Shown here in pieces: positions 15,595 to 31,382 of a stretch of 37,889 bases of DNA. Each line of letters opens with the position of its first letter. Position 1 is the first letter of the stretch. Position numbers and translations under genes: made by a program. Location of the stretch: sequence record SRR2962707_524, one strand, 5' to 3'. The notes beneath the pieces were generated by a model, which was given only the letters and a program-made list of their open reading frames with translations, had not been told where the DNA came from and did not search any database.

Positions 15595-16485
15595 TCAGTT
15601 TTCCTTCAGGGCCGCGACAAGCGCTTCGGCAAAGGCCCTGACATGTGCCCCGACGGGACGGTTTGCGGCCCGGACCAGCCGTAACTCATAGGGGACACGG
15701 GGCTCGAACCGGCGCAAGGCCAGTCCGGGGCCTTCGTAAGCACGTGCCGTGACCGGATCAAGCACGGAAATACCCAGCCCTTTTGCAACCAGCGCACAGA
15801 TCGATCCTGAATAGGAACTGTCGAAGATCACGTTCGGCGTGACGCCTGCCGCTTCAAAGGATTTCAGGATTCGCTGCTGCATCGGGCTGTATTCCGACAC
15901 CATCAGCATGGGCTCGCCCGCCAGGTCCGCCGGGCGGATGACTTTCTTCTTTGCCAACGGATGCGCGGTGGGCAGGACGGTGACGACCGCGAGGTTCGGC
16001 AGCGGCAGGATTTCCACGCCACGGGTCTGTGGCGGCATCACGGCCAGCCCAAGATCGGATTTGCCCGCGGCGACAAGCTCCATCACTTCCGGTGATGAAC
16101 AACTGTGGAGCGAGACCGTGATGTCCGGCCAGTCTTTGCGAAAGCTGGCGATGGCGGTCGGCAGGGCAAAGAATGATGGCGCCAACGACGCGGTAATGTT
16201 GATCCGTCCGCTGCGGTTTCGTTTTAGATCGCGGGCAAACAGTGCCACCTGGTCGAGGCCGTGAAAGCTGCGCTCGACTTCCTCGTAAAGCGACGCTGCA
16301 TCGGGCGTGGGGGCGATGGTGGTGCCTTCACGAACAAATAACGCAAGACCGATTTCGGCTTCCAGATCGCGGATCAGACGGCTGACGGCAGGCTGCGTAA
16401 TGTTCATCATCTGACCAGCCGAGGTCATGCCGCCGGTCTGGTAAACCGCCCGGAAAGCTTCGATCTGACGCATGTTGAGCCGCAT
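15595..16485 (-). CDS. LysR-family transcriptional regulator (LysR/OccR/NocR-like)
   Basis: HTH RQIEAFRAV..GGMTSAG..MNITQPAVSRLIRDLEAEIGLALFVR plus substrate-binding domain. Divergent from the dioxygenase. Confidence 0.93.
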   Translation of the reverse strand: MRLNMRQIEAFRAVYQTGGMTSAGQMMNITQPAVSRLIRDLEAEIGLALFVREGTTIAPTPDAASLYEEVERSFHGLDQVALFARDLKRNRSGRINITASLAPSFFALPTAIASFRKDWPDITVSLHSCSSPEVMELVAAGKSDLGLAVMPPQTRGVEILPLPNLAVVTVLPTAHPLAKKKVIRPADLAGEPMLMVSEYSPMQQRILKSFEAAGVTPNVIFDSSYSGSICALVAKGLGISVLDPVTARAYEGPGLALRRFEPRVPYELRLVRAANRPVGAHVRAFAEALVAALKEN

Positions 16486-16498
16486 GCAGACAATCTAG

Positions 16499-16517
16499 TC
16501 ATAATATTTTGTTATGA
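16499..16517. promoter_or_regulatory. LysR recognition site in the lysR/dioxygenase divergent promoter
   Basis: Dyad TCATAA-tattttg-TTATGA (ATAA-N7-TTAT, T-N11-A). TTGACA lies at 16537-16542. Confidence 0.75.
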
Positions 16518-16587
16518 GAACCCCTATAATCCAAATTTGACATTGTGGATGGTTGGCGCTTGAGTCTGCCCAGGAGGAAACAAAATC

Positions 16588-17511
16588 ATGGCTTTAAAAA
16601 TTGAGCAGCTTTGCCCGACGTTCGCCGCGCGTGTCGAAGGTCTCGACCTACGCCAGCGGCTGGACGACGAAACATTCGAAGCCGTCCACGCGGCCATCGA
16701 CGAATACGGCGTTCTCGTCTTTAACGGCGAAAAACTGTCCGAGGATCAGCAGGTGGAATTCGCCTCACGGTTTGGTCCGCTGGATGCGGTGAACGGCATT
16801 ATCCAGACCGGCGTCAAACACCGTATCAGCGATCGCCTGGTGGATATTTCGAACCTGGACGAGAAAGGCGAGGTGTTGGACCGGCAGAACCGTCGCCGGA
16901 TGGCCAACTTCGGCAACATGCTCTGGCATACGGACGCCTCCTTCAAGGCGATCACCGCACAGTATTCGCTTCTGCACGCCCACACGGTCGTCAGCGAAGG
17001 CGGCGAAACCCAGTATGCCGATATGTGCGCGGCTTACGATGCATTGCCGCAGAAAATGAAGGACCGCATCGAAGGTCTTGAAGCCGAGCATTCGGTGATC
17101 GCCTCCAGGGCGACCCTGGGCTTCACAGAATTCAGTGACGAGGAACGCGCTGCCCTGCCGCCGCAGGTCAGAACCGTTGTCCGGACGTTGCCGTCGGGCC
17201 GCAGGTCGCTCTATCTCGCATCACATGCATCGCACATTCTCGGCTGGCCGGTCCCCGAAGGCCGGATGCTGATCCGTGAACTGGTGGAGCACGCGACCAA
17301 ACCTGAGTTCGTCTATACCCACAACTGGCAGGTCGGTGATCTGGTGATGTGGGATAACCGCCGCACCATGCATCGTGCGCGGCCGTTCGACGAGAGCGAG
17401 CGTCGTGATATGCGCCGGGCGACGGTCATGGACCCGAACTGGACCGGCCGCGACGTGCTTCCGGCAAATGATCGTGTTCCGGCTCAGCATGCTGCTGCCG
17501 GCGAGGATTGA
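16588..17511 (+). CDS. TauD/TfdA-family Fe(II)/2-oxoglutarate dioxygenase (TfdA-like subgroup)
   Basis: NMLWHTDASF (HxD), GGETQYADM.AAYDALP, SLYLASHA, VGDLVMWDNRRTMHR. RBS AGGAGG. Confidence 0.92.
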   Translation: MALKIEQLCPTFAARVEGLDLRQRLDDETFEAVHAAIDEYGVLVFNGEKLSEDQQVEFASRFGPLDAVNGIIQTGVKHRISDRLVDISNLDEKGEVLDRQNRRRMANFGNMLWHTDASFKAITAQYSLLHAHTVVSEGGETQYADMCAAYDALPQKMKDRIEGLEAEHSVIASRATLGFTEFSDEERAALPPQVRTVVRTLPSGRRSLYLASHASHILGWPVPEGRMLIRELVEHATKPEFVYTHNWQVGDLVMWDNRRTMHRARPFDESERRDMRRATVMDPNWTGRDVLPANDRVPAQHAAAGED

Positions 17512-17584
17512 TATTCCGAGGGTGACGTTCGGAACTGGGGTTTTTATCTGACAGGGCGGGGGCTATCCTGCGGCTTCAGACTGC

Positions 17585-18937
17585 ATGGATAGAGGCGACA
17601 GCCCGTTGAGTGCTGAGAGCAACCCTGATTCCCGATACCCGGCAACGCACGAACCGGATTACGATGTTATCGTGATCGGCGGCGGCCCTGCCGGCAGCAC
17701 CGTGTCAGCCTTGCTGGGCATGAAGAATCGCCGGGTACTGGTGGTGGAAAAGAGCCGCCATCCCCGTTTTCATGTCGGTGAGTCCCTGCTGCCCCAGAAT
17801 ATGCCTTTGTTCAGAAAGCTTGGCGTGCTCGAGGAAATAGAGGCCATCGGGGTTACGAAAAAAGGCGCTGATTTTTCCGTCCCGGACGTCGAGGGCCACA
17901 TGGGCTTTGAGTTCGAACGTGCGCTGAACCCGGATGAGCCCACTGCCTTTCATGTTGTCCGGGCGTCGTTCGACAAGATCCTGCTCGATAATGCACGCAC
18001 TAAAGGTGCCAAGGTTCTGGAAGAAACCGAGGCATTGGATTTTCAGTTCTCTGATGACCGGGTGGTTGTCCGGATCAGGGGGGGCGAAGAGGCGGCGGCC
18101 CCCCGTGACGTCTCCGCAAAATATGTCATAGATGCATCAGGCCGCGATACCTTCATTGCCGGAAAGCTGGGACTGAAGTCACGTGATCCCCGTCATAACA
18201 GTGCGGCGGTGTTCAGCCATTTTACCGGTGTGCCGCTTCGCGAAGGTGAAGAGGCAGGGAATATCAGCCTGTACTGGTATGATCATGGCTGGTTCTGGAT
18301 GATCCCGCTTTCGCCGGAACGCATGAGCGTCGGCATGGTGTGCGCGCCTGAATATCTCAAGCAGCGGGTGGGGTCGCTGGAGGCCTTTCTCGTGAACTCC
18401 TTTTCCCAATGCCCCGCCGTTGCGGCCCGAATGGCGCATGCAAGGCCGTTGGAGGAAGTGCAGGCGACGGGGAATTTTTCATACCGCGCGTCCCGAATTT
18501 TCGGCGACAGATACATGATGGTTGGGGACTCGTATGCTTTTATCGACCCCGTTTTTTCCAGCGGCGTCTACATTGCCATGCAAAGTGCCGAGTACGCCGC
18601 CGATGTGATTGATGAAAGCCTGCGACATCCGGGACGGGCACACCGCCTGATGAGGGAATACGAACGCCGGGTCAATAAAGGGATTTCGGCATTTTCCTGG
18701 TTCATTTACCGGTTTACCGACCCGGTTATGAAGTATCTGTTCATGAACCCGTCGCGCCGCTTCGGCCTGCAGTCTGCTATCATTTCCGTCCTCGCCGGTG
18801 ACGTGTTCGGCAGAACGCGATTATGGCCTCGCCTGGCCCTGTTCAGGGCGATTTTTTCCATGGCCAAGATTTTGGACAGGTTTGGTGTCGGTCCGTTTGC
18901 ACGAACCGGGACAGCCCGGGCGCATGAGCGACAATGA
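17585..18937 (+). CDS. Flavin-dependent halogenase-family protein (xanthomonadin-cluster halogenase-like)
   Basis: GGGPAG, HPRFHVGESLLP, Lys in KKGADF, V.R..FD.ILL, WxWxIP (GWFWMIPL), GDSYAFIDPVFSSGV. Confidence 0.82.
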   Translation: MDRGDSPLSAESNPDSRYPATHEPDYDVIVIGGGPAGSTVSALLGMKNRRVLVVEKSRHPRFHVGESLLPQNMPLFRKLGVLEEIEAIGVTKKGADFSVPDVEGHMGFEFERALNPDEPTAFHVVRASFDKILLDNARTKGAKVLEETEALDFQFSDDRVVVRIRGGEEAAAPRDVSAKYVIDASGRDTFIAGKLGLKSRDPRHNSAAVFSHFTGVPLREGEEAGNISLYWYDHGWFWMIPLSPERMSVGMVCAPEYLKQRVGSLEAFLVNSFSQCPAVAARMAHARPLEEVQATGNFSYRASRIFGDRYMMVGDSYAFIDPVFSSGVYIAMQSAEYAADVIDESLRHPGRAHRLMREYERRVNKGISAFSWFIYRFTDPVMKYLFMNPSRRFGLQSAIISVLAGDVFGRTRLWPRLALFRAIFSMAKILDRFGVGPFARTGTARAHERQ

Positions 18938-19129
18938 ATGGTAGAATGCAAGATGCTCGCACAATCTTGCCCCGCACGCGGATACCCGTATTTCTATCGA
19001 TAAAGCCCAGGCGTGCTGAACGACAGCTTGAACAAGGGGTGTCCCTGACCATAGATTAGGGTACGATCATTAAAAAATATTAATGTTTGCAGCCCTTTGG
19101 GGCGCAATTTCAAGTGAAGGACGTTCAGG

Positions 19130-19405
19130 TTGCCAAATAGCGAAAAGACTCCGATGCAAGCAGAAGTGGCTGAACTGATCGTCAATATCCTCAATCTGGA
19201 AGATATGACGGCTGATGACATCGAACTTGATGCACCCTTGTTTAACGAGGGGCTGGGACTGGATTCGATTGATGCGCTGGAATTGTCACTTGAAGTTTCG
19301 CAACGCTACGGCGTCCAGATCAAATCCGATGATCCGGACATCTCGCGGATATTCGGGTCTCTGCGCCAGTTGACGGAGACGATCGAAACCAGACGCGGGA
19401 AATAG
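19130..19405 (+). CDS. Acyl carrier protein
   Basis: Small acidic protein with LFNEGLGLDSIDALEL (phosphopantetheine Ser). Start is TTG 19130 or ATG 19154. Confidence 0.93.
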   Translation: MPNSEKTPMQAEVAELIVNILNLEDMTADDIELDAPLFNEGLGLDSIDALELSLEVSQRYGVQIKSDDPDISRIFGSLRQLTETIETRRGK

Positions 19406-19425
19406 TCAGAGCAGGAACCAAGCCA

Positions 19426-20067
19426 GTGGATGTCATCCGTGTCGCACGTTTTATGGTGCCTCTTCTATCGGTCGTCCTGCTGCATGTTCTCATCATACAA
19501 GATCAGCTTGTTTTCGCGCCGGGGGCACTGGCGTTGGGGGCCTTTCTGATTGTGCTGCTCGGATTCCTTGATGACGGATTGAGCCGTGCCGGCCGGGTGA
19601 CGGGAGCGCTGGTCGTGATTTTCCTGATCGGATTGCAGGGGCTGGCTTTGCACTTTGATGCCAAACTGGCGATGGTTGTGACGTTGCTTCCCGTACTGGT
19701 CAATCTGGGGGTTGCCTGGGTATTCGGCCGCACGCTCCTGGCCGGGCGGGAGCCTTTGATCCGGCGTTTCAGCCGGTTGAGCCGTGGGGATATCCCTGCC
19801 GAACTGGAAAGCTATACACGGAACCTGACCATTCTATGGACGGTCATCATGGGGCTTATGGCAGTGATGTCCATGCTGATGGCTTTTGTTCTGCCGCCTG
19901 ACGACTGGTCGTGGGTCGTCAACCTGGCAATGCCGCTGGCTGCGTTCATGTTTTTCCTTGGAGAACATGCCTATCGGGCGATCCGCTATTCCCACCTTGG
20001 CGGCAGCAATTCACCGATCAGGACCTTGCAGACCCTCAGCCAGCCGCACCTCTGGCTTTTGCCATGA
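19426..20067 (+). CDS. Integral membrane protein typical of aryl polyene/xanthomonadin clusters
   Basis: Multiple TM helices, FGRTLLAGREPLI..F, YTRNLT.LW, FF.GEH.YR. Positioned between the ACP and the AMP ligase. Confidence 0.78.
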   Translation: MDVIRVARFMVPLLSVVLLHVLIIQDQLVFAPGALALGAFLIVLLGFLDDGLSRAGRVTGALVVIFLIGLQGLALHFDAKLAMVVTLLPVLVNLGVAWVFGRTLLAGREPLIRRFSRLSRGDIPAELESYTRNLTILWTVIMGLMAVMSMLMAFVLPPDDWSWVVNLAMPLAAFMFFLGEHAYRAIRYSHLGGSNSPIRTLQTLSQPHLWLLP

Positions 20068-21665
20068 TGCATTCACCGATCCTGATCACCCGTGACGGCC
20101 AGGTCCTGAGCCGCGATGTACTGATGCGCAAGGCCGCAGCCTTACTTGAAAGTCTCAAAATCGGCAGCGAAAAGCCGGCCCTGATGCCGCTGTGTTCGAA
20201 CTACGGGGATTTCATGGCTGCACTTGTTGCCGGACGACATGCCGGATTGCAGATCGTGCTGCCGAACGATTCAAGTGCTGCGGCACTCGGCAAGGTTATC
20301 GCCGGGATCGGAGAGGTTCTTGTGCTGATCAGCAAAGGTGATGCGCTACCTGAAATTGAGGCGCCGTCGCGTGTTCATGTGATTGAAGATGCCGTGTTGA
20401 AAGAACCAACGGCTCCGCTCAACTGGGATGAGAATAAAGACGGCGGGATCAGTCTTTTTACTTCGGGGACCACCGGTGTGCCGACGCGCCATACCCATAC
20501 TTTTGCGATGCTGCAGGCCGAGGCGTTGAAATGGGCGGAAATGCTGCGCTCGGGTGATGAACATGTAAGCCTCATCTGCACGGTGCCTGCGCAGCATATG
20601 TATGGGCTTCTGGCGGGTATCATGCTCCCGCTATATGATCCGGGGTTTTCCGTTTTCGAGGTGAAGCCGTTCTTCGCGGCAGATGTTGTCGATGCCCTGA
20701 ATGCCGTGGCTTCACCGAAAGTGCTCATAAGTACACCGGTTCATCTGAGACATCTCGTTAATGATGCCGTTACCCTGCCACCGCTTCACGCGGCTGTGTC
20801 GGCAACGGCACCGCTGGCGCGGGATCTGGCGGCGGCGGTCGAGAGCCGTTTTTCTACCACCATGATCGAAGTGTTCGGCACCACCGAGACCGGGATGATC
20901 GCGTCACGCAACACTACCGTTTCGGATGTATTCGTGCCGCGCGATGATCTGCAGCTTTCGTTTCAAAACCGGCGGATGCATGTTGCGTCCCCATGGTGGA
21001 GCGGCGAGGTGTTGATCGATGATACGATCGAGGCGGCGGGGGCGGGCTTTCGTCATATCGGACGTGGCGAGGACTTGATCAATGTCGCGGGGAAGCGGGC
21101 ATCTCTCGCCGGATTGACCCGGACGCTGCTGCAGATAGACGGCGTCGCGGACGGCGTGTTCATCATGCCGGATAAAAGCATGTATAGCCGTGGTGAAGTC
21201 CGGCCGATCGCATTCGTGTGCGCACCGGACAGAACGGCGGAACAGATAAGGACGGCGTTGCGTCAGCATCTGGCGCAGGCCTTCATCCCGAAACGGATCG
21301 TCATGCTCGATGACTTGCCGCGATCGACAACAGGTAAAGTGCTGATCTCGGAATTGCAGAAAATGCTGAACCCGCGCGGGAAAGAAACCGACAACACATT
21401 CACGGTGTCTGAAAATCATCCATCACTGGCGGGACATTTTCCGGGGAACCCGGTGGTGCCGGGGGCGGTTGTGCTGGATTTTGCCCTGCGCACGGTGGGC
21501 GTTCAACCGGACCAGGGTTTGCAGACCGTGAAGTTCAATGGTTTCCTGCGCCCGATGCAGAAATGTTCCGTGGAAAAAAGCGAGACAGGCGGGAAGACAA
21601 CAATCATCTGCCGTGTCGGCGCACAGAAAATCATGAGTGCACAGCTCAGTCCGGTCGGCACATGA
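20064..21665 (+). CDS. Aryl-acid:ACP AMP ligase fused to a C-terminal FabA/ApeI-like dehydratase domain
   Basis: FTSGTTGVP, TVPAQHMYGL, STPVHL, VSATAPL, EVFGTTETG, GKRASL, PRSTTGK, then HPSLAGHFPGNPVVPGAVVL. ATGA-coupled start at 20064. Confidence 0.85.
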   Translation: MMHSPILITRDGQVLSRDVLMRKAAALLESLKIGSEKPALMPLCSNYGDFMAALVAGRHAGLQIVLPNDSSAAALGKVIAGIGEVLVLISKGDALPEIEAPSRVHVIEDAVLKEPTAPLNWDENKDGGISLFTSGTTGVPTRHTHTFAMLQAEALKWAEMLRSGDEHVSLICTVPAQHMYGLLAGIMLPLYDPGFSVFEVKPFFAADVVDALNAVASPKVLISTPVHLRHLVNDAVTLPPLHAAVSATAPLARDLAAAVESRFSTTMIEVFGTTETGMIASRNTTVSDVFVPRDDLQLSFQNRRMHVASPWWSGEVLIDDTIEAAGAGFRHIGRGEDLINVAGKRASLAGLTRTLLQIDGVADGVFIMPDKSMYSRGEVRPIAFVCAPDRTAEQIRTALRQHLAQAFIPKRIVMLDDLPRSTTGKVLISELQKMLNPRGKETDNTFTVSENHPSLAGHFPGNPVVPGAVVLDFALRTVGVQPDQGLQTVKFNGFLRPMQKCSVEKSETGGKTTIICRVGAQKIMSAQLSPVGT

Positions 21666-22561
21666 GCCAAAGCAATATCGCAACCCATTGGGCGGCACGG
21701 CAGGAACGGGGCAGTGCCTATCTGATCCGGTTCATTGCCTGGCTGGCACGGGTCTCCGGACGCAAGGTTACACGTGCGCTTCTGTATCCGATCACGCTCT
21801 ATTTTCTGCTGTTTGCACCATCGGCACGCCGCAGCTCGCTGCAATACCTGAACCGGGTGCTGGGCCGCAGGGCGACATGGCGGGATGCTTTCACGCATAT
21901 CCATGTGTTTGCCGGCACCGTCCTGGATCGGGTGTTTCTGTTGTCGAATCGTCAGGATCTGTTCGACATTGAGTTCGATGGTCTTGATACCCTGCTGGAT
22001 GCGCTTAGCGGCGGTCAGGGCGTTCTGCTCCTCGGTGCGCACTTCGGCAGTTTTGACGCCATGCGATCACTTTCCGAGCGTGCCCGGAATCGTGAGCTGA
22101 AAATTCTCATGTATGACGGCAACGCCAGCACGGTCGGCGCGGTCCTGAATGCGCTTAACCCGGCCTTCGAACAGCATATTATCCGGCTGGGTCCGCCGGA
22201 AAGTATGATGCAGGTCAGTGAAGCGATAAAAGCCGGCGAGATGGTCGGCATTCTGGGTGACAGAGCAACGCATGACGGAAAAACATACGAGGTATCGTTT
22301 CTCGACAATACGGCCAGGGTGGCCTCTGCGCCTTGGGTGCTTGCAACCATCACCCGGGCGCCGGTGATTGTGTTTTCGACGGTTTTTGACGGCGTCAATG
22401 GCTACAAGGTTACCTTGCGGCGACTTCAGGTTGACGAAGGTGCCCGCCCCCGCGATCACGAAAAAGGCCGCCATTTTGCCCAGTCCTATATGAATATCAT
22501 TGAGGCTCAGGTTCGCAACGCCCCGTACAACTGGTTCAATTTTTATGATTTCTGGTCCTAG
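21662..22561 (+). CDS. LpxL/LpxP-like lipid acyltransferase
   Basis: W...QERGS, GAHFGSFD (HX4D), GILGDR, PYNWFNFYDFW. ATGA-coupled start. Confidence 0.87.
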   Translation: MSQSNIATHWAARQERGSAYLIRFIAWLARVSGRKVTRALLYPITLYFLLFAPSARRSSLQYLNRVLGRRATWRDAFTHIHVFAGTVLDRVFLLSNRQDLFDIEFDGLDTLLDALSGGQGVLLLGAHFGSFDAMRSLSERARNRELKILMYDGNASTVGAVLNALNPAFEQHIIRLGPPESMMQVSEAIKAGEMVGILGDRATHDGKTYEVSFLDNTARVASAPWVLATITRAPVIVFSTVFDGVNGYKVTLRRLQVDEGARPRDHEKGRHFAQSYMNIIEAQVRNAPYNWFNFYDFWS

Positions 22562-23132
22562 AACATTCAGCCGTTTTGTGATGGTGCTCGTCCTTTCGGT
22601 ATTCACTGCCGGGGGCATCATGCCGGCGGCGGCGATGACGCTGGATGATCTGGCGCGGTCACTCGAAGATCACGCATCGGAGAAAGTTGACTTCATCGAG
22701 CACCGGCACATCAGTTATCTGGATGCACCGCTGGTATCAAAAGGCACCATGACATTCACCGACGGGGTTCTGACCAAGTCGGTGACGTCGCCAACAACTG
22801 AAAAGTTCGAAGTCAGGGACGATCAGGTTGTGCATTATGATGCCGATCAAAATGAAACCCGGTTCGCTGTCGGGGACAGTCCGGTCCTCCGCAGCCTTGT
22901 GGTCACGCTGCGCTCAATGCTGACGGGCCACCTGAAACCGATGTTTGAACTTTTCGCTGTCGAATTCACCGGAGATGAGACGGCATGGCATCTTGATCTG
23001 ACGCCGAAGTCCGAGAGCCTGAGGGAAGACCTGGATGCGATCAGTATCAGTGGGCGCGGTGGCGACGTGAAGGAGCTGACAATTGACGAGCGGAACGGTG
23101 ACCGGACTTTGATACAAATCCGGAATGACTGA
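22545..23132 (+). CDS. LolA-like periplasmic carrier protein
   Basis: Signal peptide, F.E.R...YLDAPLVSKG, W.L.LTP, ERNGDRT. Located between the acyltransferase and MMPL. Start is approximate. Confidence 0.78.
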   Translation: MISGPRTFSRFVMVLVLSVFTAGGIMPAAAMTLDDLARSLEDHASEKVDFIEHRHISYLDAPLVSKGTMTFTDGVLTKSVTSPTTEKFEVRDDQVVHYDADQNETRFAVGDSPVLRSLVVTLRSMLTGHLKPMFELFAVEFTGDETAWHLDLTPKSESLREDLDAISISGRGGDVKELTIDERNGDRTLIQIRND

Positions 23133-25416
23133 CATGCTGAGGCGCTTCTCATTGCCGGTGTTTATCTTGGCTCTGGTGTTGCTTGTGGTTGCGGTTCGCA
23201 GCGTCAACATCACGACGGACATGTCATTTTTTACACCGGACGGCTCGGCCGGGGACGAAGCCTTTCTGTTCCATGAAATGACGTCATCTTCGGGTATCGC
23301 CATGATTGCCGTCTCGGGCCAGGATTCAGACAAGGTTCTCGCGGCGCGCAATGCGATCTCTGCCAGACTGACGTCGATGCCCGTGGTGTCGCGTGTCATG
23401 CATGACGGGATCAGTGTCGATCCCCGGATGCATGATTTCTTCGTACAGCACCGCTATGTGCTTGGCCCGGATTTGGAAGCGGCGACATTCACGGCAGAAG
23501 GCATGCGCACACGGATTTCAGATGGCCTACAGAAACTCGGCACGGCCATCGGTCCGTTCTATCGCGATATCCTGCCCCGTGATCCGACTGGGCGGGTGCT
23601 CGATTTTATTGAACGGCGTAACGCACGTAACGATGACGGCGCCGCCATGAAGCCGTGGCAGGATGCACCGAATTCCAGACTGCTTCTTGCTTTGCTGAAG
23701 ACCGGATCAGACGATATCCCCGCGCATGCCGAGATAAAATCAGCGGTTCACGATGTGCTTTCAGAGGCGGTCCATAGCGGGGTGCAGGCGGATATCAGCG
23801 GGCCGGGGTTTTTTGCCCTCAACGCGAGTGAACGTATCCGTGCGGAAATGCAGTGGCTGGCGATCCTTGCCACGTGTGCGGTAGCAGTCATTCTGTTTGC
23901 CGTGTTTCGTGCGCCAATCATTCTGCTGGCGATCGCATTGCCGGTCGCATTCGGCATGATGTGCGGCATCCTGCTCACGTCATTCATTTTCGGGCATGTG
24001 CACGGTGTGGCGATTGCATTCGGCTCAGTGCTGGTCGGTGTTGCGGTTGACTACCCGCTGCATCTGGCCGGCTTCCGGCGGCCGGATGAGCCCGCATACA
24101 GTGTCGCGAAGCGTTTGTTCCCGATCATGCTTCTGGGGGCGGGGACGACGCTTGCCGGTTTTCTGATTCTGTCGCAGTCAAGTTTCCCGGGCCTGTCGCA
24201 GGTCGGCACTCTGACGGCAACAGCCATCGTCGTCGCCGTACTCTTCAGCCGCTTTCTGTTGCCGTTATGTCTGCCGGGAAAAGCCGCCGATCTGCGTTTG
24301 GGCGCCGCGTGCTGGAACTTCTTCAGAGATCGCCCTGGGCTCAGGCGGACCGGAAGAATTCTGGTGTGTGCCGTTCCGGTGGCGGGAATCGGGATTGCGA
24401 TCCTGACGCGGCCGGCGGTCTGGGATGACGATATCAGAAACCTGCAGATGCCGAACGATGCCCAGATCCGTATCGATCGTGATCTGCGCACACGGCTCGG
24501 CATGCCGGATGTCAGTCACCTGCTTGTCATCCGCGGAGACAGCGCCGATGACGTCCTCGAAACACAATGGCGCGTATCAGACCGGCTTCGCGAAGCCGTC
24601 GATAAAGGAGACATCGGCGGTTATCTGTCCCTGACGGATATTCTGCCACCGCCCACCATCCAGCAGCAGCGACTTGAAAAAATACCCGACGAACCCCTTC
24701 TAAAAGAAAGGTTGCGTGACGCGGTAGCACCCCTGCCGTTGAAGGCTGAAGCGTTTCAGCCGTTTATCGATGATGTCAGGGCGGCCAAAGCCAAAGGGCC
24801 TCTTCGGGCTGACGACCCGGCATTGCAGCAACTTACGGGGCTGTTGAAATTCCCGGTGGATACGGGGCATGGCTGGGCCAACATCATTCAGCTCGTGCCC
24901 CCGATTAATGCGGAGAATCTCTCTATTCAGGACGCACAACTCATAAACCTGCGGCAGATGGCGAGCGGGATTGTCCGGGACTATCGTGCCGAAGCGACGG
25001 ATCTTCTGGTGATCGGTGCGCTGCTGGGCCTGGCCATTGTCGTGATCGGCCGGCGAAGTTTGCGTTCGGGACTGGAGGTATTTGCCGCCCCCACCATTGC
25101 CCTCCTGGCGACGGTTACGGTGCTGATTCTGGCGGGTATGCCGCTCAGTTTTTTCAATCTTCTTGCGCTGGTGCTGGTGGTCAGTATCGGAGTCGATTAC
25201 GAGGTTTTCTTCGCCGGGTATGAGGTGGACCCGGAAACAGGGGAACACAGTTTCAATTCCATCATGCTCTGCTTCTTCTCCACTTTTGCGGTCTTTGCAA
25301 TCCTCGCCACGTCGAGCTTTCCGATGCTTCATACCATCGGGCTGACGGTATCCATAGGCGCATTAATTTCTTTTCTGTACACCGTCCTGCGCGGCGACAG
25401 GGCGCCGGCATCATGA
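23125..25416 (+). CDS. MMPL/RND-family exporter
   Basis: Two-repeat topology with large periplasmic loops, AFGSVLVGVAVDYPLH, SSFPGLSQVG, LVVSIGVDY. Confidence 0.88.
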   Translation: MTDMLRRFSLPVFILALVLLVVAVRSVNITTDMSFFTPDGSAGDEAFLFHEMTSSSGIAMIAVSGQDSDKVLAARNAISARLTSMPVVSRVMHDGISVDPRMHDFFVQHRYVLGPDLEAATFTAEGMRTRISDGLQKLGTAIGPFYRDILPRDPTGRVLDFIERRNARNDDGAAMKPWQDAPNSRLLLALLKTGSDDIPAHAEIKSAVHDVLSEAVHSGVQADISGPGFFALNASERIRAEMQWLAILATCAVAVILFAVFRAPIILLAIALPVAFGMMCGILLTSFIFGHVHGVAIAFGSVLVGVAVDYPLHLAGFRRPDEPAYSVAKRLFPIMLLGAGTTLAGFLILSQSSFPGLSQVGTLTATAIVVAVLFSRFLLPLCLPGKAADLRLGAACWNFFRDRPGLRRTGRILVCAVPVAGIGIAILTRPAVWDDDIRNLQMPNDAQIRIDRDLRTRLGMPDVSHLLVIRGDSADDVLETQWRVSDRLREAVDKGDIGGYLSLTDILPPPTIQQQRLEKIPDEPLLKERLRDAVAPLPLKAEAFQPFIDDVRAAKAKGPLRADDPALQQLTGLLKFPVDTGHGWANIIQLVPPINAENLSIQDAQLINLRQMASGIVRDYRAEATDLLVIGALLGLAIVVIGRRSLRSGLEVFAAPTIALLATVTVLILAGMPLSFFNLLALVLVVSIGVDYEVFFAGYEVDPETGEHSFNSIMLCFFSTFAVFAILATSSFPMLHTIGLTVSIGALISFLYTVLRGDRAPAS

Positions 25417-26597
25417 CATTGGATATTGCAATCAGGGGCATGACCTGCACCTCCGCCCTGGGTCGCGGCATGGGAGCTATCCGTGAGGCGCTTGCTGCTG
25501 AGCGCTCCGGCTTGGTTGCCTATGAATGCCCGGAAGCGCCACTTGAGACGTTCGTTGGTCCGGTTGCAGATGTCGATGCGGTTTCATTGCCGGACGACGT
25601 CGCCGGGTTCGATTGCCGGAACAACCGGCTGGCCGAGATGGCATTGCATGAAGATGGCTTCCTGTCGCTGGCCAGGTCCGCCGTACGTGAATTCGGCGCC
25701 GAACGAGTTGCGGTTATTCTGGGGACCAGTACATCCGGCATCGGAAACACGGAGCATATCTACAGACAGCATGCCGCAAATGGGCAGTTGCCGGCGGATA
25801 ACCATTTTCTGACGACCCATGACATGATGTCGCTCAGTTCTTTTGTTGCACGAAGAACCGGTGCTGCCGGACCCTGCTACACGATCTCGACGGCCTGTTC
25901 GTCAAGCACGCGGAGCTTCAGTGACGGCGCACGACTGATCCAATCCGGTATATGCGATGCCGTCATCGCGGGCGGTGTCGATACGCTCTGTGAAACATCG
26001 ATACGGGGCTTCAATGCGTTGCAGCTTTTATCCCCGGAACCCTGCCGTCCCAATGACAGAAACCGAAAGGGTATTTCCATCGGTGAAGCCGGCGGTTTTG
26101 CCTTGCTGACGCGCGGCTCGGCAAACGATGAAATCATGCTGTGCGGTTTCGGGGAAAGTGCGGATGCCTATCACATGTCTTCGCCGCATCCCGAAGGGGC
26201 GGGCGCGATCAGCGCCATGGCGGAAGCCCTGCATATGTCCGGTCTTTCGGCGGGGGATATCGGATATGTGAACCTGCACGGCACGGGCAGCACCTATAAT
26301 GACAAGGTTGAGGATCTTGCGATGCTCCATGTCCTTGGGTCGGCGACACCGTGCAGTTCAACCAAGGGTTTCAGCGGCCACACGCTGGGCGGTGCGGGCA
26401 TTCTTGAAGCCGCAATCACGATAACGGCGCTGCGTGATGGAATGCTGCCTGTGAACCTCAACCTCAGGGATACGGACCCTGAATTGAAGAGCATGCTTGT
26501 GCGCGAAACCCGCAGCGCCGCGTTTTCCCATGCGATGACGAACAACTTCGGCTTCGGCGGCAACAATTGCGTTCTGATCTTCTCGAAGAGGACATGA
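25413..26597 (+). CDS. Beta-ketoacyl-ACP synthase (type II PKS KS)
   Basis: Cys-His-His triad: ISTACSSS, NLHGTGS, TKGFSGHTLG. Also GTSTSG and NNFGFGGNN. Confidence 0.93.
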   Translation: MTLDIAIRGMTCTSALGRGMGAIREALAAERSGLVAYECPEAPLETFVGPVADVDAVSLPDDVAGFDCRNNRLAEMALHEDGFLSLARSAVREFGAERVAVILGTSTSGIGNTEHIYRQHAANGQLPADNHFLTTHDMMSLSSFVARRTGAAGPCYTISTACSSSTRSFSDGARLIQSGICDAVIAGGVDTLCETSIRGFNALQLLSPEPCRPNDRNRKGISIGEAGGFALLTRGSANDEIMLCGFGESADAYHMSSPHPEGAGAISAMAEALHMSGLSAGDIGYVNLHGTGSTYNDKVEDLAMLHVLGSATPCSSTKGFSGHTLGGAGILEAAITITALRDGMLPVNLNLRDTDPELKSMLVRETRSAAFSHAMTNNFGFGGNNCVLIFSKRT

Positions 26598-26598
26598 G

Positions 26599-27402
26599 AT
26601 GAAGGCGCGGATTTTAGGGATATCGGTCATTGCTCCCGCCATCAGCGGATGGGATGACATCCGCCCTGTTTTGAGGGGGGAAACGCCCTGGCCGCGTGGA
26701 GAGCTTGAACTGACGGCGCCGGATATTCTGGCGCCACGCGAACGCCGCCGCACCAGCCCGTCCCTCCGTCTTGCACTGAATACAGCCGTAGATGCCTGCC
26801 GCGCGGCCGATATCGGGTTGCATGAAGTGCCGTCGGTGTTCTGCACATCCGTTGGCGATGGCGATGTCTGCGATGCAATCCTCAGTGCGCTGACCCGGTC
26901 CGAGCGACTGGTGTCGCCGACACATTTTCATAACTCGGTCCATAATGCCGCTGCGGGATACTGGAGCATTGGCACCGAAAACAGGAAGTCGTCGGTTTCA
27001 TTGGCTGCCGGTGAGGCAACATTCGGCGCCGGACTGTTGCGTGCGATGTCGGGCCTTGAGCATGACCGATGTCCGACACTGCTGGTGATATCCGATCACC
27101 AGCTGCCGGGACTGCTAAGCGAGATGCATAACGTCGACCATGCGATGGGGGTCGGGTTTGTATTGGCGCCTGCGGATAGTCGCTATCCATCCCTGGCGGA
27201 CGTTGAAATCATGGGCGCGGATGCTGGACCGGAAACGCAGCCTGCCGACAAGGACATGGCAAAGGTTTTTGCGGGTGTCCCGGCGGCCCGGACGATCCCG
27301 TTTCTGACGGCGATTGCCAAGGGTGCCTCCACCCCTGAAGATATGGTCATATGTGCCGGCGGAAACGGCTTCAGGATCAGGGCGCGCGTGAGCGGGACAT
27401 GA
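26599..27402 (+). CDS. Beta-ketoacyl synthase chain-length factor
   Basis: PRERRRTS, VSPTHFHNSVHNAAAGYWSI. Short KS-like fold without the catalytic triad, directly after the KS. Confidence 0.87.
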   Translation: MKARILGISVIAPAISGWDDIRPVLRGETPWPRGELELTAPDILAPRERRRTSPSLRLALNTAVDACRAADIGLHEVPSVFCTSVGDGDVCDAILSALTRSERLVSPTHFHNSVHNAAAGYWSIGTENRKSSVSLAAGEATFGAGLLRAMSGLEHDRCPTLLVISDHQLPGLLSEMHNVDHAMGVGFVLAPADSRYPSLADVEIMGADAGPETQPADKDMAKVFAGVPAARTIPFLTAIAKGASTPEDMVICAGGNGFRIRARVSGT

Positions 27403-27827
27403 AAGACGATATCAACATCGAAGGACTGATTCCCCATGCGGGCAGCATGGTTCTGATTGATGCCATTGCATCGTGGGACCAGCAGGGGATTACGTGCTCG
27501 ACGGCATCGCATCGTGATCCCAACAATCCGTTGCGGAACGATGCCGGGCTGCCTGTGGTTGCCGGTATCGAATATGGCGGGCAGGTTGCCGCCCTGCACG
27601 GCGGGCTGAGCGGTCGACGTATGGATGGATATATTGTCGCCGTCAAAGATTTCACCGCGTCCGTGCAGATACTGGATACGATCCAAAGCGATCTGTTTGT
27701 AGAGGCTGCCTGTATGGCCTCGAATGAACAGTCTGCCATCTACACATTCCGGATATTCTCAGCCGCCGACGAAGACAATACACTGGCCGGGGGGCGACTC
27801 ACCATCGCCCTGGATGACCCGGCATGA
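27399..27827 (+). CDS. Hotdog-fold dehydratase partner (ApeP-like)
   Basis: LIPHAGSMVLIDAI..W, SHRDP.NPLR, GIEYGGQ..ALHG. ATGA-coupled start at 27399. Confidence 0.83.
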   Translation: MKDDINIEGLIPHAGSMVLIDAIASWDQQGITCSTASHRDPNNPLRNDAGLPVVAGIEYGGQVAALHGGLSGRRMDGYIVAVKDFTASVQILDTIQSDLFVEAACMASNEQSAIYTFRIFSAADEDNTLAGGRLTIALDDPA

Positions 27828-28558
27828 GCGATGATGCCATCAAGCGGGCGCTGATAACCGGGGCAAGCGGTGCGCTCGGTGCCGGGATTGCCCGCAATCT
27901 TGCCGGAGAAGGATTTCATGTGATTCTTCATGCCGGCCGGCACCCGGAAAACACCGAACGGCTCGCCCGCGAATTGAATGCAAACGGGGCTTCAGCAGAA
28001 ACCGTGACTTTCGATGTCTGTGATACGGATGCATCCCGTAACATCCTGTTGGCGCTTGTGGAAGCGTCACCCATCCAGGTGCTGGTCAGCAATGCCGGTG
28101 TGCATATCGACGGTCCCATGGCAGGTATGACGGCTGAAGACTGGCAGTTGCCGATCGATGTGACGCTCAACGGGTTTTTCAATGTTGCCCGGCCATTGCT
28201 GATGCCCATGATCCGCTCACGTTGGGGGCGCATCATCGCAATATCCTCGGTCTCGGGGATTCTCGGCAACAAGGGCCAGAGCAATTATGCCGCGGCAAAA
28301 TCAGGACTGCATGGCGCGGTTAAATCCCTGTCGCGCGAAATCGCCGCGAAGGGGGTTACGGTCAATGCGGTCGCCCCGGGGATACTCGAAAACACGGTCG
28401 CCGACGGTGAAATCGATGCTGCACAGCTGAAATCTTATGTCCCCATGCGGCGTGCGGGCAGGATTTCAGAGGTTGCGGATGTGGTGTCGTTTCTGGCTTC
28501 CGATAAGGCATCCTACCTTACGGGCCAGATCGTTGCCGTGGACGGTGGCCTCACCTAA
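27824..28558 (+). CDS. fabG: 3-oxoacyl-ACP reductase (SDR)
   Basis: TGASGALG, SNAG, SSVSG..GN.GQSNYAAAKSG (YxxxK), VNAVAPG. Confidence 0.92.
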   Translation: MSDDAIKRALITGASGALGAGIARNLAGEGFHVILHAGRHPENTERLARELNANGASAETVTFDVCDTDASRNILLALVEASPIQVLVSNAGVHIDGPMAGMTAEDWQLPIDVTLNGFFNVARPLLMPMIRSRWGRIIAISSVSGILGNKGQSNYAAAKSGLHGAVKSLSREIAAKGVTVNAVAPGILENTVADGEIDAAQLKSYVPMRRAGRISEVADVVSFLASDKASYLTGQIVAVDGGLT

Positions 28559-28616
28559 CACTCCCTCTGCACGAATAGATATCGGCACAGGCGTGTTTGC
28601 GACTTATGATGGATTC

Positions 28617-29402
28617 ATGGATCTTCACCTCGACCACAATACAGACATTGGGCATACAGGGAGCGTAGCAGCTGATCATGTTGCGATCGTGATCCCTGCC
28701 TATAACGAAGGTGCGACAATCGGCGCCATTGCCCGGGCGGCTCTTTTGCAGACGCCGAACGTGATTATCGTCAATGACGGTTCAACCGATGATACCGTAT
28801 CGGTCCTCCAGGGCATGGCGGTCCGGCGGATCGATCTTCCGGTCAATCAGGGCAAGTCAGGCGCACTGCTGCGTGGTTTTCAGGAGGCGATGAAGCTGCC
28901 CGGTGTCGAAGCTGTCGTGACACTGGATGGCGATGGGCAGCACCGCGTTGAAGACTTTCCCGAAATCGTCAGGACAGGACGGCTTTATTCCCGGACAATT
29001 GTCGTCGGATCGCGCCTTTGGGATGCCGACAAGTTTCCGATCTCTCGTCTGCGTGCCAACAGATTTGCGAACTTCTGGATTTCATGGGCGGCTGGGCAGC
29101 CGATCGACGACAGCCAAAGCGGTTTTCGGTTTTATCCACTGTCGGTGTTGCGGATGCTTGATCTCGATGCCTGTGCCAGGCGCGGCTTCGTTCTGGAAAG
29201 CGAACTTCTCATTCTTGCGTCCAGGGCCGGTGCGGATATTCGAAGTGTCCGCATTCCGGCAATATATAATGACCGTCTCATGCGCCCGAGCCACTTTCGA
29301 CCCGTTGTCGACATCGCGCGCATCGTGCTGATGGTGGCATGGAAGCTGGCCATCCGCGGCTTGGACATTCCAGGTCTCATACGGTCAAAGCAAAAACGCT
29401 GA
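28617..29402 (+). CDS. Glycosyltransferase family 2
   Basis: VIPAYNE, VNDGSTD, NQGKSGAL, LDGDGQH, DSQSGFRFYP, SHFRPVVD. Start is approximate. Confidence 0.9.
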   Translation: MDLHLDHNTDIGHTGSVAADHVAIVIPAYNEGATIGAIARAALLQTPNVIIVNDGSTDDTVSVLQGMAVRRIDLPVNQGKSGALLRGFQEAMKLPGVEAVVTLDGDGQHRVEDFPEIVRTGRLYSRTIVVGSRLWDADKFPISRLRANRFANFWISWAAGQPIDDSQSGFRFYPLSVLRMLDLDACARRGFVLESELLILASRAGADIRSVRIPAIYNDRLMRPSHFRPVVDIARIVLMVAWKLAIRGLDIPGLIRSKQKR

Positions 29403-29483
29403 CTCTGGAAACCCACTCAAACGACCACGTCTGGAATCAGAGCCTGCGTAATCGCAATGTCGCGCCGTCGTCCCTGTTCCGAG

Positions 29484-30794
29484 CTACAGCAGACCCGGCA
29501 GGAAAGTTGCGATCGGCGGGAACCAGTAGATGATCAGCATCGCCAGCAGGAAGATGCCGACGATCGGCAGGCTTGATGCGAAAATGACGCGCAGGTCGAC
29601 GTCGGGGGCAACGCCCTTGAATGCAAACATGGCGTAGCCGAAGGGTGGCGTTATACCGCCGATCACGACATTCAGAAGCATCAGCATCCAGAACCACATG
29701 GGCTCGAACTGCAGTGCCTCGACCACCGGCAGGTAGATCGGAATGACGACGAGCATCAGGGCGACCTGATCAATGAACATGCAGAAGATGAACACCACGG
29801 CCATCATCAGCAACAGGATCAGCCCCGGTGACAATTCGGAATTCAGGACCAGCGACGCGAGCTTGCTGGTTGCGCCGCTAAAGGCGAGCAGCTGACTGAA
29901 CATCGTCGATGTCGCCATGATGATCAGGATCATGCTGGCGATGATCGCGGCCTGACCCAGACTGTCCCAGACCATTTTCAGCGACAGCTTGCGGAATATC
30001 GCGGCCGTGACGAGCGCGCCGACAACGCCGGTGGCGGCGGACTCCGACGGGGTGGCAACGCCTGTCAAAATGAACCCCATGACGGATGCAATGATGATCA
30101 GGAACGGGGCGCATCTCAGGATCTGTATCAGAGCGCTTGAGTCTTTATTCTTCGGGGCATCCGTTGCGGCGGCGCTGGGGGCAAGGGACGGGTTCAGCAC
30201 GCAACGGCCCAGGGCATACCCCAGACACAGGACCGCAATCAGCAGGCCTGGCAGGATGCCGGCGATCAGCAGACCGGCGACGGAGGCATTCGCCAGGGTG
30301 GCGATGATGATGGCCAGCACACTCGGCGGAATGATCGGCGCCAGGCTGGCGCCGGCGAGGATCACGCCGATGGACAGTTTGGAATCGTAGCCACGTTCGG
30401 CCATGGCAGGATAAACCGTGCGGCCCATCATTGCCGCGACGGCCATGTTGGAACCGGAGAGAGCGCCGAATACGGTTGCCAGCGACATGGCCAGAACATA
30501 TTGGCGGCCCTTGACCCGGCCGATCAGGCTGTCCACCGCATCGAACAGCACACCCGTCGAGCCGGACCGGAAAAGAATCTCGCCCATCAGGACGAATAGC
30601 GGGATCGCCGTCAGGGTGCCGGTGGTCGTCGTGTCGAAAACTGAATTGACGACCATGCCGAACGCGTTCGGCCCAAGGAAGGTGACAACACCACCGACAT
30701 TGATCACAAGAAACGCCAGAAAGATCGGCATGCCGGAAAAGAACAATCCCAGCAGCAAACCTGCAGCAACCAGTAGCGTCGCCCACCATTCCAT
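29484..30794 (-). CDS. dctM: TRAP transporter large permease
   Basis: AIPLFVLMGEI, LAPIIPPS, G.ATPSESAA, ITPPFG. Confidence 0.93.
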   Translation of the reverse strand: MEWWATLLVAAGLLLGLFFSGMPIFLAFLVINVGGVVTFLGPNAFGMVVNSVFDTTTTGTLTAIPLFVLMGEILFRSGSTGVLFDAVDSLIGRVKGRQYVLAMSLATVFGALSGSNMAVAAMMGRTVYPAMAERGYDSKLSIGVILAGASLAPIIPPSVLAIIIATLANASVAGLLIAGILPGLLIAVLCLGYALGRCVLNPSLAPSAAATDAPKNKDSSALIQILRCAPFLIIIASVMGFILTGVATPSESAATGVVGALVTAAIFRKLSLKMVWDSLGQAAIIASMILIIMATSTMFSQLLAFSGATSKLASLVLNSELSPGLILLLMMAVVFIFCMFIDQVALMLVVIPIYLPVVEALQFEPMWFWMLMLLNVVIGGITPPFGYAMFAFKGVAPDVDLRVIFASSLPIVGIFLLAMLIIYWFPPIATFLPGLL

Positions 30795-30797
30795 GTA

Positions 30798-31337
30798 TCA
30801 GGTCTCCGCCATGGGGGTCGTGTCGTCGTGTTTCGGCAAAGTTTTGCCGGTGATCGCAAGACGCAGGTATTCAATGGCCGACAGGGCGAAACCGATGCCG
30901 ATCCAGACGGATATCCACCATTTCGGCACCGGATGTGTGGCCAGCATCTGGATGTTGCGGAGAAACTGCCGGAGCGTTTCACCGGAGGCGAAGTAGGTCA
31001 TCGCTGCACAGGCCAGAAATCCGAGAATATATATGAGACGCATGACGAGCGCGCGGCGTTGCTCGGGCAGGGCGTCGACGACAACGGTGACGGCGACCTG
31101 GCTGCCCGTTGCGGTGACGTAGGGCATCATGGTGAAGACCACCACGCACAGAAGATACGTCACTAGATCAGATGAAAAGGAGGTCGGCGCATCAAACAGA
31201 TATCTGCTGACCACCTCGTAGCTGTAGGTCAGAACGATGCTTGCCAGTGCAAGCTTCGACAGAATGAAGCCGGCGGTACGCAGGAATTCGGACATCCTGA
31301 GCACCGCCGACCATATATGTATCGCGAGCGAGGTCAT
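30798..31337 (-). CDS. dctQ: TRAP transporter small permease
   Basis: Four TM helices, YEVVSRYLFDAPT. Located between dctP and dctM. Confidence 0.88.
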   Translation of the reverse strand: MTSLAIHIWSAVLRMSEFLRTAGFILSKLALASIVLTYSYEVVSRYLFDAPTSFSSDLVTYLLCVVVFTMMPYVTATGSQVAVTVVVDALPEQRRALVMRLIYILGFLACAAMTYFASGETLRQFLRNIQMLATHPVPKWWISVWIGIGFALSAIEYLRLAITGKTLPKHDDTTPMAET

Positions 31338-31382
31338 CGGCAAAAGCCGCCTTGGCGTGATGCGGCCATTACCAGACCATCC

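Follow-up and report, generated by a model that had tools for sequence, protein, structure and literature searches.

A compact xanthomonadin-like operon, probably for an aryl polyene pigment lipid, encoding a candidate halogenase

Gene content and organization of the locus

The 37,889-nucleotide stretch of DNA from sequence record SRR2962707_524, from now on referred to as the window, carries a set of 12 genes between positions 17585 and 29402, all located on the + strand and mostly overlapping. Judged from their sequences, these genes very probably form an aryl polyene (APE) cluster. Together with the pathway proposed below, the locus would best be explained as a compact xanthomonadin-type APE pigment-lipid operon, a reading of the whole in which we place moderate confidence. 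A prediction made earlier from the letters alone (the original prediction) had listed a halogenase, an acyl carrier protein (ACP), an AMP ligase, a ketosynthase (KS) with a chain length factor (CLF), a FabG, an acyltransferase, a family 2 glycosyltransferase (GT2), an MMPL exporter and a LolA-like protein, as well as a dehydratase pair. All of these parts are present in their places on the + strand (Table 1), and the 12 frames are open and without internal stops at the coordinates first listed. The dehydratase pair is real, with one member forming the C-terminus of the ligase and the other being a free protein of 142 residues. Overlooked in the earlier gene list was a 213-residue ApeG-like membrane protein encoded between the ACP and ligase genes.

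Ten of the 12 genes could be named through profile searches using Pfam and NCBIfam. Curated NCBIfam cut-offs were exceeded for the ACP, the KS and the ketoreductase (KR), and all other proteins have Pfam matches except for the membrane protein and the second dehydratase (DH2). A FabG-type reductase and two hotdog dehydratases are all present, as expected of xanthomonadin-type APE clusters, and the lipid-attachment and export set, consisting of acyltransferase, GT2, MMPL exporter, LolA-like carrier and ApeG-like membrane protein, is complete. Searching the window with the E. coli ape proteins (tblastn) returned one ACP and one KS.

Using the most plausible ATG starts, four-base stop/start overlaps are found at five junctions, namely membrane protein/ligase, ligase/acyltransferase, MMPL/KS, CLF/DH2 and DH2/KR, which argues for a single operon running from the ACP to the GT2 gene. 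At the first of these junctions, the ligase ATG at 20064 overlaps the stop codon of the membrane protein gene. The overlap between the LolA-like and MMPL genes is 8 bases long, the CLF gene begins 2 bases past the KS stop, and the halogenase gene lies 192 bases upstream of the ACP gene on the same strand. Two open reading frames (ORFs) have likely starts inside the longest frame: the ACP ORF opens with a TTG at 19130 with an ATG at 19154 as the likely start, and the GT2 ORF opens at 28437 with its likely ATG at 28617. Promoter and terminator scans of positions 16400-19500 and 29000-29700 gave nothing above shuffled expectation.

Catalytic residues are intact and conserved among homologues, in agreement with what had been claimed for frames and motifs. 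Conservation was judged on 25-46 homologues from the fetched loci described below, a pool that may include locus L095 from genome G243. The Cys-His-His triad of the KS (C162, H289, H323) is conserved in 46 sequences, and S142, Y155 and K159 of the KR, D45-S46 of the ACP and the D104xD106 motif of the GT2 are likewise conserved. H127 of the acyltransferase is conserved among homologues, and the full Hx4D motif (H127 to D132) can be seen in the window sequence itself.

The last approximately 100 residues of the ligase ORF are FabA-like (E 1.4e-5) and contain the motif GHFPGNPVVPG. This ligase-dehydratase fusion is common to several betaproteobacterial loci. A single alignment piece runs through both parts in L042, L067, L068 and L077, as well as in L102 of the alphaproteobacterial genome G130. 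In Azospirillum and Skermanella, each part has its own gene, the two lying side by side. DH2 has neither a Pfam match nor a sequence match in the PDB. An AlphaFold model built from 28 homologues (pLDDT 93.4) finds its best fold match in 6qsr_B, part of the Xenorhabdus ApeI:P dehydratase heterocomplex (TM 0.79), followed by FabZ structures, and H13, H38, E58 and H67 are invariant in 28 sequences. The membrane protein reaches no Pfam family at threshold. It is, however, homologous (E 2e-6) to the protein following the two ACPs of the E. coli ape locus, matches same-position proteins in the Azospirillum locus L106 and in L102 of genome G130, and has readable hydrophobic segments.

Of the two ACPs of the E. 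coli ape locus, the first resembles the window ACP more closely (46% identity) than the second (29%). The best solved relatives of the KS are 6qsp_A and 7f28_B, and the only solved relatives of the CLF are the partner chains of these two, 7f28_A and 6qsp_B. A glutamine reported to be essential for the CLF-like protein of Lysobacter (Q166; PMC3691225) lacks conservation among 36 CLF homologues and was not used as a membership feature. What these homologues do share is the motif SPTxFHNSVHNAxxGYW and an invariant aspartate, which is D166 in the window protein; Q168 of the same protein is located two residues further. HpnN/HAE3-like models match the MMPL protein below their cut-offs, and same-position homologues are found in L102, L106 and the E. 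coli reference locus L118. Equivalog-level flexirubin matches were not reached in the window, with the FlxB reductase model NF053542 at 237 bits (cut-off 340) and the LolA2 model NF053544 at 52 bits for the LolA-like protein (cut-off 125); no search was aimed at dialkylresorcinol genes.

Table 1 Features of the putative aryl polyene operon, in window coordinates
Feature	Position	Strand	Evidence
Flavin-dependent halogenase (putative), XanB1/ArcA type, 450 aa	17585..18937	+	PF04820 97 bits, PF01494
ACP, ApeE/XanC-like	19130..19405	+	PF00550; NF006617 113 bits, cut-off 70
Polytopic membrane protein, ApeG-like, 213 aa	19426..20067	+	Homology and position
Putative aryl-acid AMP ligase (XanA2/ArcT/ApeH-like) fused to hotdog dehydratase	20064..21665	+	PF00501, PF13193, FabA
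C-terminal hotdog dehydratase (ApeI-like) of ligase ORF	about 21370-21665	+	FabA-like
LpxL/Lip_A-type lysophospholipid acyltransferase (acyltransferase half of ApeJ)	21662..22561	+	PF03279
LolA-like periplasmic carrier (ApeL-like)	22545..23132, start uncertain 22500-22545	+	PF19574 LolA_3
MMPL/RND-type exporter (ApeM-like)	23125..25416	+	PF03176
Aryl polyene-type KS	25413..26597	+	NF006618 481 bits, cut-off 407
CLF-like KS partner	26599..27402	+	PF13723 95.5 bits
Second hotdog dehydratase DH2 (ApeP-like), 142 aa	27399..27827	+	AlphaFold fold match
3-oxoacyl-ACP reductase (XanH/FabG3/ApeQ-like)	27824..28558	+	NF004200 308 bits, cut-off 273
GT2 glycosyltransferase (glycosyltransferase half of ApeJ)	28617..29402	+	PF00535

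Relationship to known aryl polyene clusters

Besides the gene identities, family membership and conserved catalytic residues described above, the assignment of the locus is directly supported by synteny and by the placement of its KS in a xanthomonadin-type clade. The latter was obtained from a KS phylogeny, which had been named as a check together with the original prediction. A quick maximum-likelihood tree was calculated from 45 KS sequences, 7 of which are FabF/FabB-like and were set as outgroup. These are joined on their side of the root by the E. coli ApeR-type KS, giving 8 sequences there, and the other 37 form the APE-type KS clade (support 100). Inside this clade, the E. coli ApeO-type KS and one gammaproteobacterial sequence group together (support 98) and lie outside a 35-sequence xanthomonadin-type clade (support 98) that contains the window KS together with those of G130, Lysobacter sp., Dyella sp., Rhodanobacter terrae, Variovorax sp., Dechloromonas hankyongensis, Azospirillum and Skermanella. 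Within it, the window KS pairs with that of G130 (support 97), a related alphaproteobacterial genome, and this pair is sister to the remaining 33 sequences (support 88). It should be noted, as a point against this placement, that the sequences mostly stem from loci picked through their halogenase and that the tree is without flexirubin or Vibrio-type references. One further KS gene, in the gammaproteobacterial metagenome-assembled genome (MAG) locus L045 (3778-4794), is found in two ORFs of 173 and 117 residues, suggesting a frameshift or an assembly error.

For comparison with the E. coli ape locus, the annotated plasmid record L118 was used as reference, with Ape letters taken from the available portion of Grammbitter et al. 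2020 and from gene order. The window proteins align in order to the E. coli CLF, first ACP, ApeG, ligase, dehydratase, GT2 plus acyltransferase (one frame, ApeJ), MMPL exporter, KS and KR. Within the ApeJ region, the window GT2 aligns with the first half and the acyltransferase with the second. Sequence similarity identifies window homologues of ApeC, E, G, H, I, J, M, O and Q from the ape clusters of E. coli and Xenorhabdus doucetiae, while the ApeP-like dehydratase is recognized by its fold and the LolA-like carrier by its family. The window also follows the logic of these clusters, namely type II polyketide synthase, lipid attachment and export. Unlike them, it is without ApeF, ApeR, the ApeB methyltransferase, the ApeD PlsC acyltransferase, ApeK and the DUF3261 protein ApeN, has ApeJ split into two genes and carries an added halogenase gene. 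The E. coli methyltransferase, PlsC acyltransferase, thioesterase and DUF3261 protein found no match in the window at E <= 0.01 (tblastn), and in the same reverse searches both E. coli ACPs matched the single window ACP and both KSs, including ApeR, the single window KS. The E. coli ape KS that lies outside the clade of the window KS is 42% identical to it. Roles of ApeJ, ApeD, ApeG, ApeL and ApeM follow the available portion of Grammbitter et al. 2020, where the Xenorhabdus model has ApeF (the second ACP) and ApeD (PlsC-type) serving a conjugated fatty-acyl branch. Because the operon is without a second ACP, a second KS and a PlsC-type acyltransferase, its product is predicted to be without such a branch.

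The Xanthomonas campestris pig cluster (XCC3998-XCC4015) shares with the window one KS and CLF-like protein, one ACP, the ligase XanA2, two FabA/Z-like dehydratases and FabG3/XanH (PMC3949708, PMC3838355, PMC6859482), as well as an LpxL-type acyltransferase, a GT2, an exporter, a LolA-like protein, a small membrane protein and the ACP-adjacent "reductase/halogenase" XanB1. Unlike the pig cluster, the window is without XanB2, an XCC4001-type halogenase, a PlsC-like second acyltransferase and a methyltransferase, its genes all lie on one strand, and its ligase is fused to a dehydratase. At the sequence level, this comparison was carried out via proxies from Xanthomonadaceae, Lysobacter and Dyella. 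The originally predicted likeness to xanthomonadin clusters over the E. coli-type locus is therefore borne out by gene content and the KS tree, but not by XanB2, the methyltransferase and the PlsC-type acyltransferase, which the window does not contain.

According to the available portion of PMC3949708, the arc genes of Azoarcus sp. BH72 share ArcA, ArcV (ACP), ArcU, ArcT (ligase), ArcS (dehydratase), ArcR (acyltransferase), ArcQ (LolA) and ArcP (exporter) with the window, in addition to KS, CLF, dehydratase, KR and glycosyltransferase genes. They differ in being arranged in two unlinked clusters and in including a dialkylresorcinol cluster, XanB2 (ArcB), a methyltransferase and a deacetylase, none of which is found in the window, and their product is described there as a polyene-resorcinol ester without halogen. 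Betaproteobacterial halogenase orthologues, found in Azonexus and Dechloromonas loci, are 45-48% identical to the window enzyme. Next after the halogenase gene, the betaproteobacterial loci L042 and L022 encode a XanB2-type chorismatase (PF21168), a PlsC-type acyltransferase and a GT2, with a UbiE-like methyltransferase nearby, an arrangement that agrees with the arc and pig clusters. Searching the window with these additional proteins (tblastn) gave E values of 0.5 or worse for the methyltransferase and the PlsC-type acyltransferase.

Related loci were fetched through the halogenase peptide pattern PRFHIGESL, yielding 80 loci. The corresponding peptide of the window enzyme reads PRFHVGESL, so its closest relatives were missed: all 80 loci are 41-51% identical in the halogenase, and closer relatives (62-70%) are known only as proteins. 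The fetched loci belong to Beta- and Gammaproteobacteria, Nitrospirota, a Polyangiaceae MAG and three alphaproteobacterial MAGs. At least three other cluster genes lie within 10 kb of the halogenase gene in 37 of the 80 loci and none in 29, several of the loci being short. The halogenase family itself is very large, with at least 7971 homologues at E <= 0.001 among the best 8000 candidates.

The frequency of the system was estimated in 401 genomes sampled from the class, presumably Alphaproteobacteria, of G001, a MAG titled "uncultured Rhodospirillales bacterium". The halogenase (E <= 1e-60) is found in 13 and a KS above the NF006618 cut-off in 24 of these genomes, with 12 encoding both (12, 23 and 11 of 400, respectively, when genome G243 is left out). 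Of the 12 genomes having both, 10 have the two genes no more than 10 kb apart on a single contig. In G130, the gene order is that of the window (halogenase, ACP, membrane protein, fused ligase-dehydratase, acyltransferase, LolA, MMPL, KS, CLF, dehydratase, GT2) at protein identities of 33-69%, which implies purifying selection. The G130 locus (L102, G130:C10) also carries an opposite-strand DUF218 gene between halogenase and ACP (4800-5400) and a GntR regulator gene upstream of the halogenase; there is no ketoreductase gene between its DH2 and GT2 genes (13689-14648 region).

Two megaplasmids of named, cultured Rhodospirillales (Alphaproteobacteria), from Azospirillum ramasamyi (NZ_CP029832) and Skermanella sp. 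TT6 (NZ_CP067421), carry uncharacterised halogenase-bearing clusters with the same order from ACP to FabG as the window. Identities are 47% for the halogenase, 47-48% for the KS and 57% for the KR, and the A. ramasamyi cluster has homologues of the full window gene set. Both clusters differ from the window in adding a polysaccharide deacetylase, two methyltransferases, a PlsC-type acyltransferase and MipA, in having GT2 and halogenase genes on the opposite strand and in keeping ligase and dehydratase as separate genes, and their KSs belong to a different subclade. Guzman and Vilcinskas (2021, PMC8776678) surveyed 139 type strains of Acetobacteraceae and reported APE clusters in 47 of them; in the accessible part of that study, genes linked to the KS are annotated as adenylate-forming protein, probable halogenase and transporters, and no isolated product is described. 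The Acetobacteraceae are a different family and were compared by sequence only through the KS of a Roseomonas plasmid, which is 49% identical to that of the window.

The earlier ranking of the locus as the strongest novel-system candidate of the window was thus overstated, given the 12 of 401 genomes, the same-order cluster of G130, the named plasmids and the Acetobacteraceae study. Halogenase-bearing APE clusters are neither rare in Alphaproteobacteria nor unnoticed in print, and the window does not represent a new kind of system. What distinguishes it is its compactness, the ligase-dehydratase fusion, the absence of XanB2, methyltransferase and PlsC-type acyltransferase genes from the window and the deep KS branch shared with G130.

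The candidate halogenase and the predicted product

The motifs claimed in the original prediction for the flavin-dependent enzyme, GxGxxG and WxWxIP, are found as GGGPAG and GWFWMIP, together with FIDPVFSSG. All 17 aligned homologues retain these motifs and K92, with the exception of two positions of the WxW element, which vary. Nine of its ten best solved relatives bear the name halogenase (8zop, CmlS 3i3l, PltA 5dbj, ChlB4, 3e1t, 5buk, 5bul/5bva and RadH; 124-191 bits), the tenth being 3nix, named "Flavoprotein/dehydrogenase", whereas monooxygenase structures score at most 30 bits. The WxWxIP motif is said to block monooxygenase chemistry in halogenases, and some of the halogenases among these solved relatives act on carrier-bound substrates. 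K92/K93 align with the KK pair of CmlS, one lysine of which is catalytic in CmlS; a one-residue ambiguity in the local alignment counts against a firm equivalence.

From sequence, the enzyme is assigned to the XanB1/ArcA type, because in the Xanthomonadaceae locus L037 the copy beside the ACP shares 46% identity with it, compared with 27% for the XCC4001-like copy beside the GT2. The X. campestris cluster encodes two FAD enzymes, the "halogenase" XCC4001 and the "reductase/halogenase" XCC4013 (Table S4, Schoner et al. 2014, PMC3949708). According to the same table, XCC4001 shares 26% identity with Azoarcus ArcA and 55% with a Variovorax protein, while XCC4013 is 46% identical to ArcA; XCC4013 is named XanB1 and located between the ACP and XanB2 (PMC3838355). 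The pair of halogenase-like FAD enzymes in L037, a MAG (284-1903 and about 10001-11230), one beside the GT2 and one beside the ACP, mirrors XCC4001 and XCC4013. Halogenase genes were already drawn in Xanthomonas and Variovorax clusters in the available portion of Wang et al. 2013.

By homology to the characterised Xanthomonas, Azoarcus, Lysobacter and Xenorhabdus systems, the following pathway can be proposed, in which every chemical step as well as starter unit, halogen, anchor and cellular location is assigned by such homology. The ligase domain would adenylate a hydroxybenzoate-like aryl acid, whose source is not encoded in the window, and load it onto the dedicated ACP. A KS:CLF heterodimer would then elongate the chain using malonyl units, each extension being followed by FabG reduction and by dehydration through the two hotdog proteins, one fused to the ligase and one free, to yield an ACP-bound conjugated polyene. 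The XanB1/ArcA-type enzyme would probably introduce bromine or chlorine into the aryl head or the polyene while it is bound to the ACP. Attachment of the polyene acyl group to a glyco(phospho)lipid anchor would fall to the LpxL-type acyltransferase and the GT2, which are together equivalent to the fused ApeJ, and transport of the product to the outer membrane to the ApeG-like membrane protein, the MMPL exporter and the LolA-like carrier.

The halogenation step is open to doubt. Sequence makes halogenation by this XanB1/ArcA-type enzyme likely, though it is not established for the family, and whether the product actually carries halogen is close to an even call. A competing explanation, which we consider possible but less probable than the favored one, accepts the same APE lipid operon and holds that its FAD enzyme does not halogenate, being idle at normal halide, acting as a reductase or hydroxylase or serving some other step, so that the pigment would be halogen-free. 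Several observations point this way and weigh against a halogenated product. Azoarcus sp. BH72 carries ArcA, 46% identical to X. campestris XanB1, yet its pigment arcuflavin is halogen-free (C41H52O4) (PMC3949708); it is on this account that halogenation is judged likely but unproven. The family is annotated "reductase/halogenase" in Xanthomonas (PMC3949708, PMC3838355) and "halogenase/reductase" for Daro_4197, and NCBI annotates the Azospirillum and Skermanella homologues only as "NAD(P)/FAD-dependent oxidoreductase". The second, XCC4001-type halogenase of Xanthomonas may be the brominating enzyme, and the sole FAD enzyme of the window cluster is not of this type (27% identity, as above). No flavin reductase partner is evident in the cluster. 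On the other side stand the WxWxIP motif, the invariant lysine and the FxDPxFSxG motif, conserved in the window enzyme and its homologues, and the best-scoring solved relatives (166-191 bits), which are characterised halogenases. Furthermore, Azoarcus was grown in LB medium without added bromide according to the available portion of PMC3949708, and a bromide-preferring enzyme could have idled under such conditions. In the literature within reach, which does not extend to Cao et al. 2018, no source was found that says which enzyme brominates xanthomonadin, and the accessible portions of PMC8269204 and PMC10469690 contain nothing on polyene-linked halogenases or alphaproteobacterial APE clusters. 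Of the halogenated polyene lipid originally claimed, the APE-type polyketide and lipid-export cluster is confirmed, while the halogen is less secure in light of the ArcA-bearing Azoarcus.

Starter supply bears on a second alternative, which appears unlikely. Here, the operon would use an aliphatic or other starter and make a polyunsaturated or hydroxy-acyl lipid without an aryl head, as a relative of APE clusters and not an APE cluster proper. No starter-forming enzyme (XanB2, UbiC or tyrosine ammonia-lyase) was found within the window. The best match to the two XanB2-like proteins of L042 and L022 has an E value of 0.58, and the flanking window ORFs have no FkbO/Hyg5-like Pfam domain. Among five related alphaproteobacterial genomes that carry the halogenase-bearing APE cluster and are possibly incomplete (G001, G002, G130, G360 and G228), the XanB2-type domain PF21168 was found in one and UbiC (PF04345) in none. 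These results favor the second alternative; those from the five genomes also bear on where a hydroxybenzoate starter and the ubiquinone ring would come from. The idea that a YjgF-like ORF at 33894-34394 is what is left of a XanB2 gene was dismissed, since the ORF has no FkbO N domain and no XanB2-like similarity. The ligase, moreover, matches general AMP-binding models only, with TIGR02372 reaching 95 bits against a cut-off of 335, and in the available portion of Grammbitter et al. 2020 the Xenorhabdus ape cluster also builds a non-aryl conjugated fatty-acyl chain. An aryl head is nevertheless favored by the ligase being 31-37% identical to the ligases of L042 and L022, clusters that encode XanB2 beside the halogenase, by the ACP resembling the aryl-loaded E. 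coli ACP more closely than the second one (46% versus 29%) and by the phenol-type halogenase, which suits an aryl substrate. The available portion of PMC3949708 has ArcT activating 3-hydroxybenzoic acid (3-HBA), and XanA2 is described as a 3-HBA:ACP ligase, as cited in the accessible part of PMC6859482.

That the cluster is a silent or decaying remnant without a product in its host is very improbable, since all 12 of 12 frames are open with intact catalytic residues, translational coupling is kept and gene order is shared with G130, even though APE clusters frequently stay silent under laboratory conditions, that of Xenorhabdus required promoter exchange (available portion of Grammbitter et al. 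2020) and the nearest relative, G130, has no KR gene in its cluster.

Returning to the xanthomonadin-type APE operon as the preferred explanation, APE lipids are among the commonest bacterial pigment pathways, and as yellow pigments of the outer membrane they protect against light and oxidants. To our knowledge, very few APE products have been solved, none of them from Alphaproteobacteria. We tentatively suggest, as a possibility on the less probable side, that the window and G130 represent a separate, early-branching and streamlined APE lineage in marine Rhodospirillales-like bacteria, whose product may be an undescribed free-phenol aryl polyene bearing bromine or chlorine on a simple glycolipid anchor. 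With its clean, compact organization and intact catalytic residues, the operon is a convenient candidate for heterologous expression, and it suits the question, which concerns Xanthomonas as well, whether XanB1/ArcA-type enzymes halogenate aryl polyenes.

Host and neighboring genes

The alphaproteobacterial context that had been proposed is supported indirectly, through Rhodospirillales MAG homologues and through plasmid matches of the flanks. The nearest named homologue of the halogenase comes from a Rhodospirillales MAG (67% identity), another (P0009, 62%) clusters with Tara Oceans sequences, and an aldehyde dehydrogenase encoded in the flank shares 93% identity with a protein cluster having Rhodospirillales MAG members. 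Flanking DNA shows weak matches of 71-72% to Salipiger and Sulfitobacter plasmids (Rhodobacterales). Our best guess from these similarities is that the host is a marine Rhodospirillales-like alphaproteobacterium. Sampled words of the window were found at a fraction of 0.51 in one sequencing run and of 0.10-0.16 in three others, with no RNA run among those listed; these results have no bearing on habitat or expression.

Genes on either side are taken to lie outside the cluster because they have no homologue beside the clusters of three related genomes. A TauD-family dioxygenase gene (16588-17511) and a divergent LysR gene (15595-16485) were considered as members and rejected, with no homologue beside the clusters of G130, G360 and G228, and the same applies to the downstream TRAP transporter on the other strand. 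The region 29484-35104, which comprises this TRAP transporter (DctMQP, - strand), an amidase, a YjgF/RidA-like protein and a TetR regulator, resembles a small catabolic island unrelated to the pigment. A 474-residue ORF without Pfam match on the - strand (12062-13486) is antisense to a DAO-family oxidoreductase gene (11987-13312) and is probably a spurious GC-rich frame. Further upstream, positions 504-8059 (+ strand) encode a full haem-uptake set consisting of a TonB-dependent receptor, TonB, HemS/ChuX, ExbB, ExbD, a periplasmic binding protein, a FecCD permease and an ABC ATPase.

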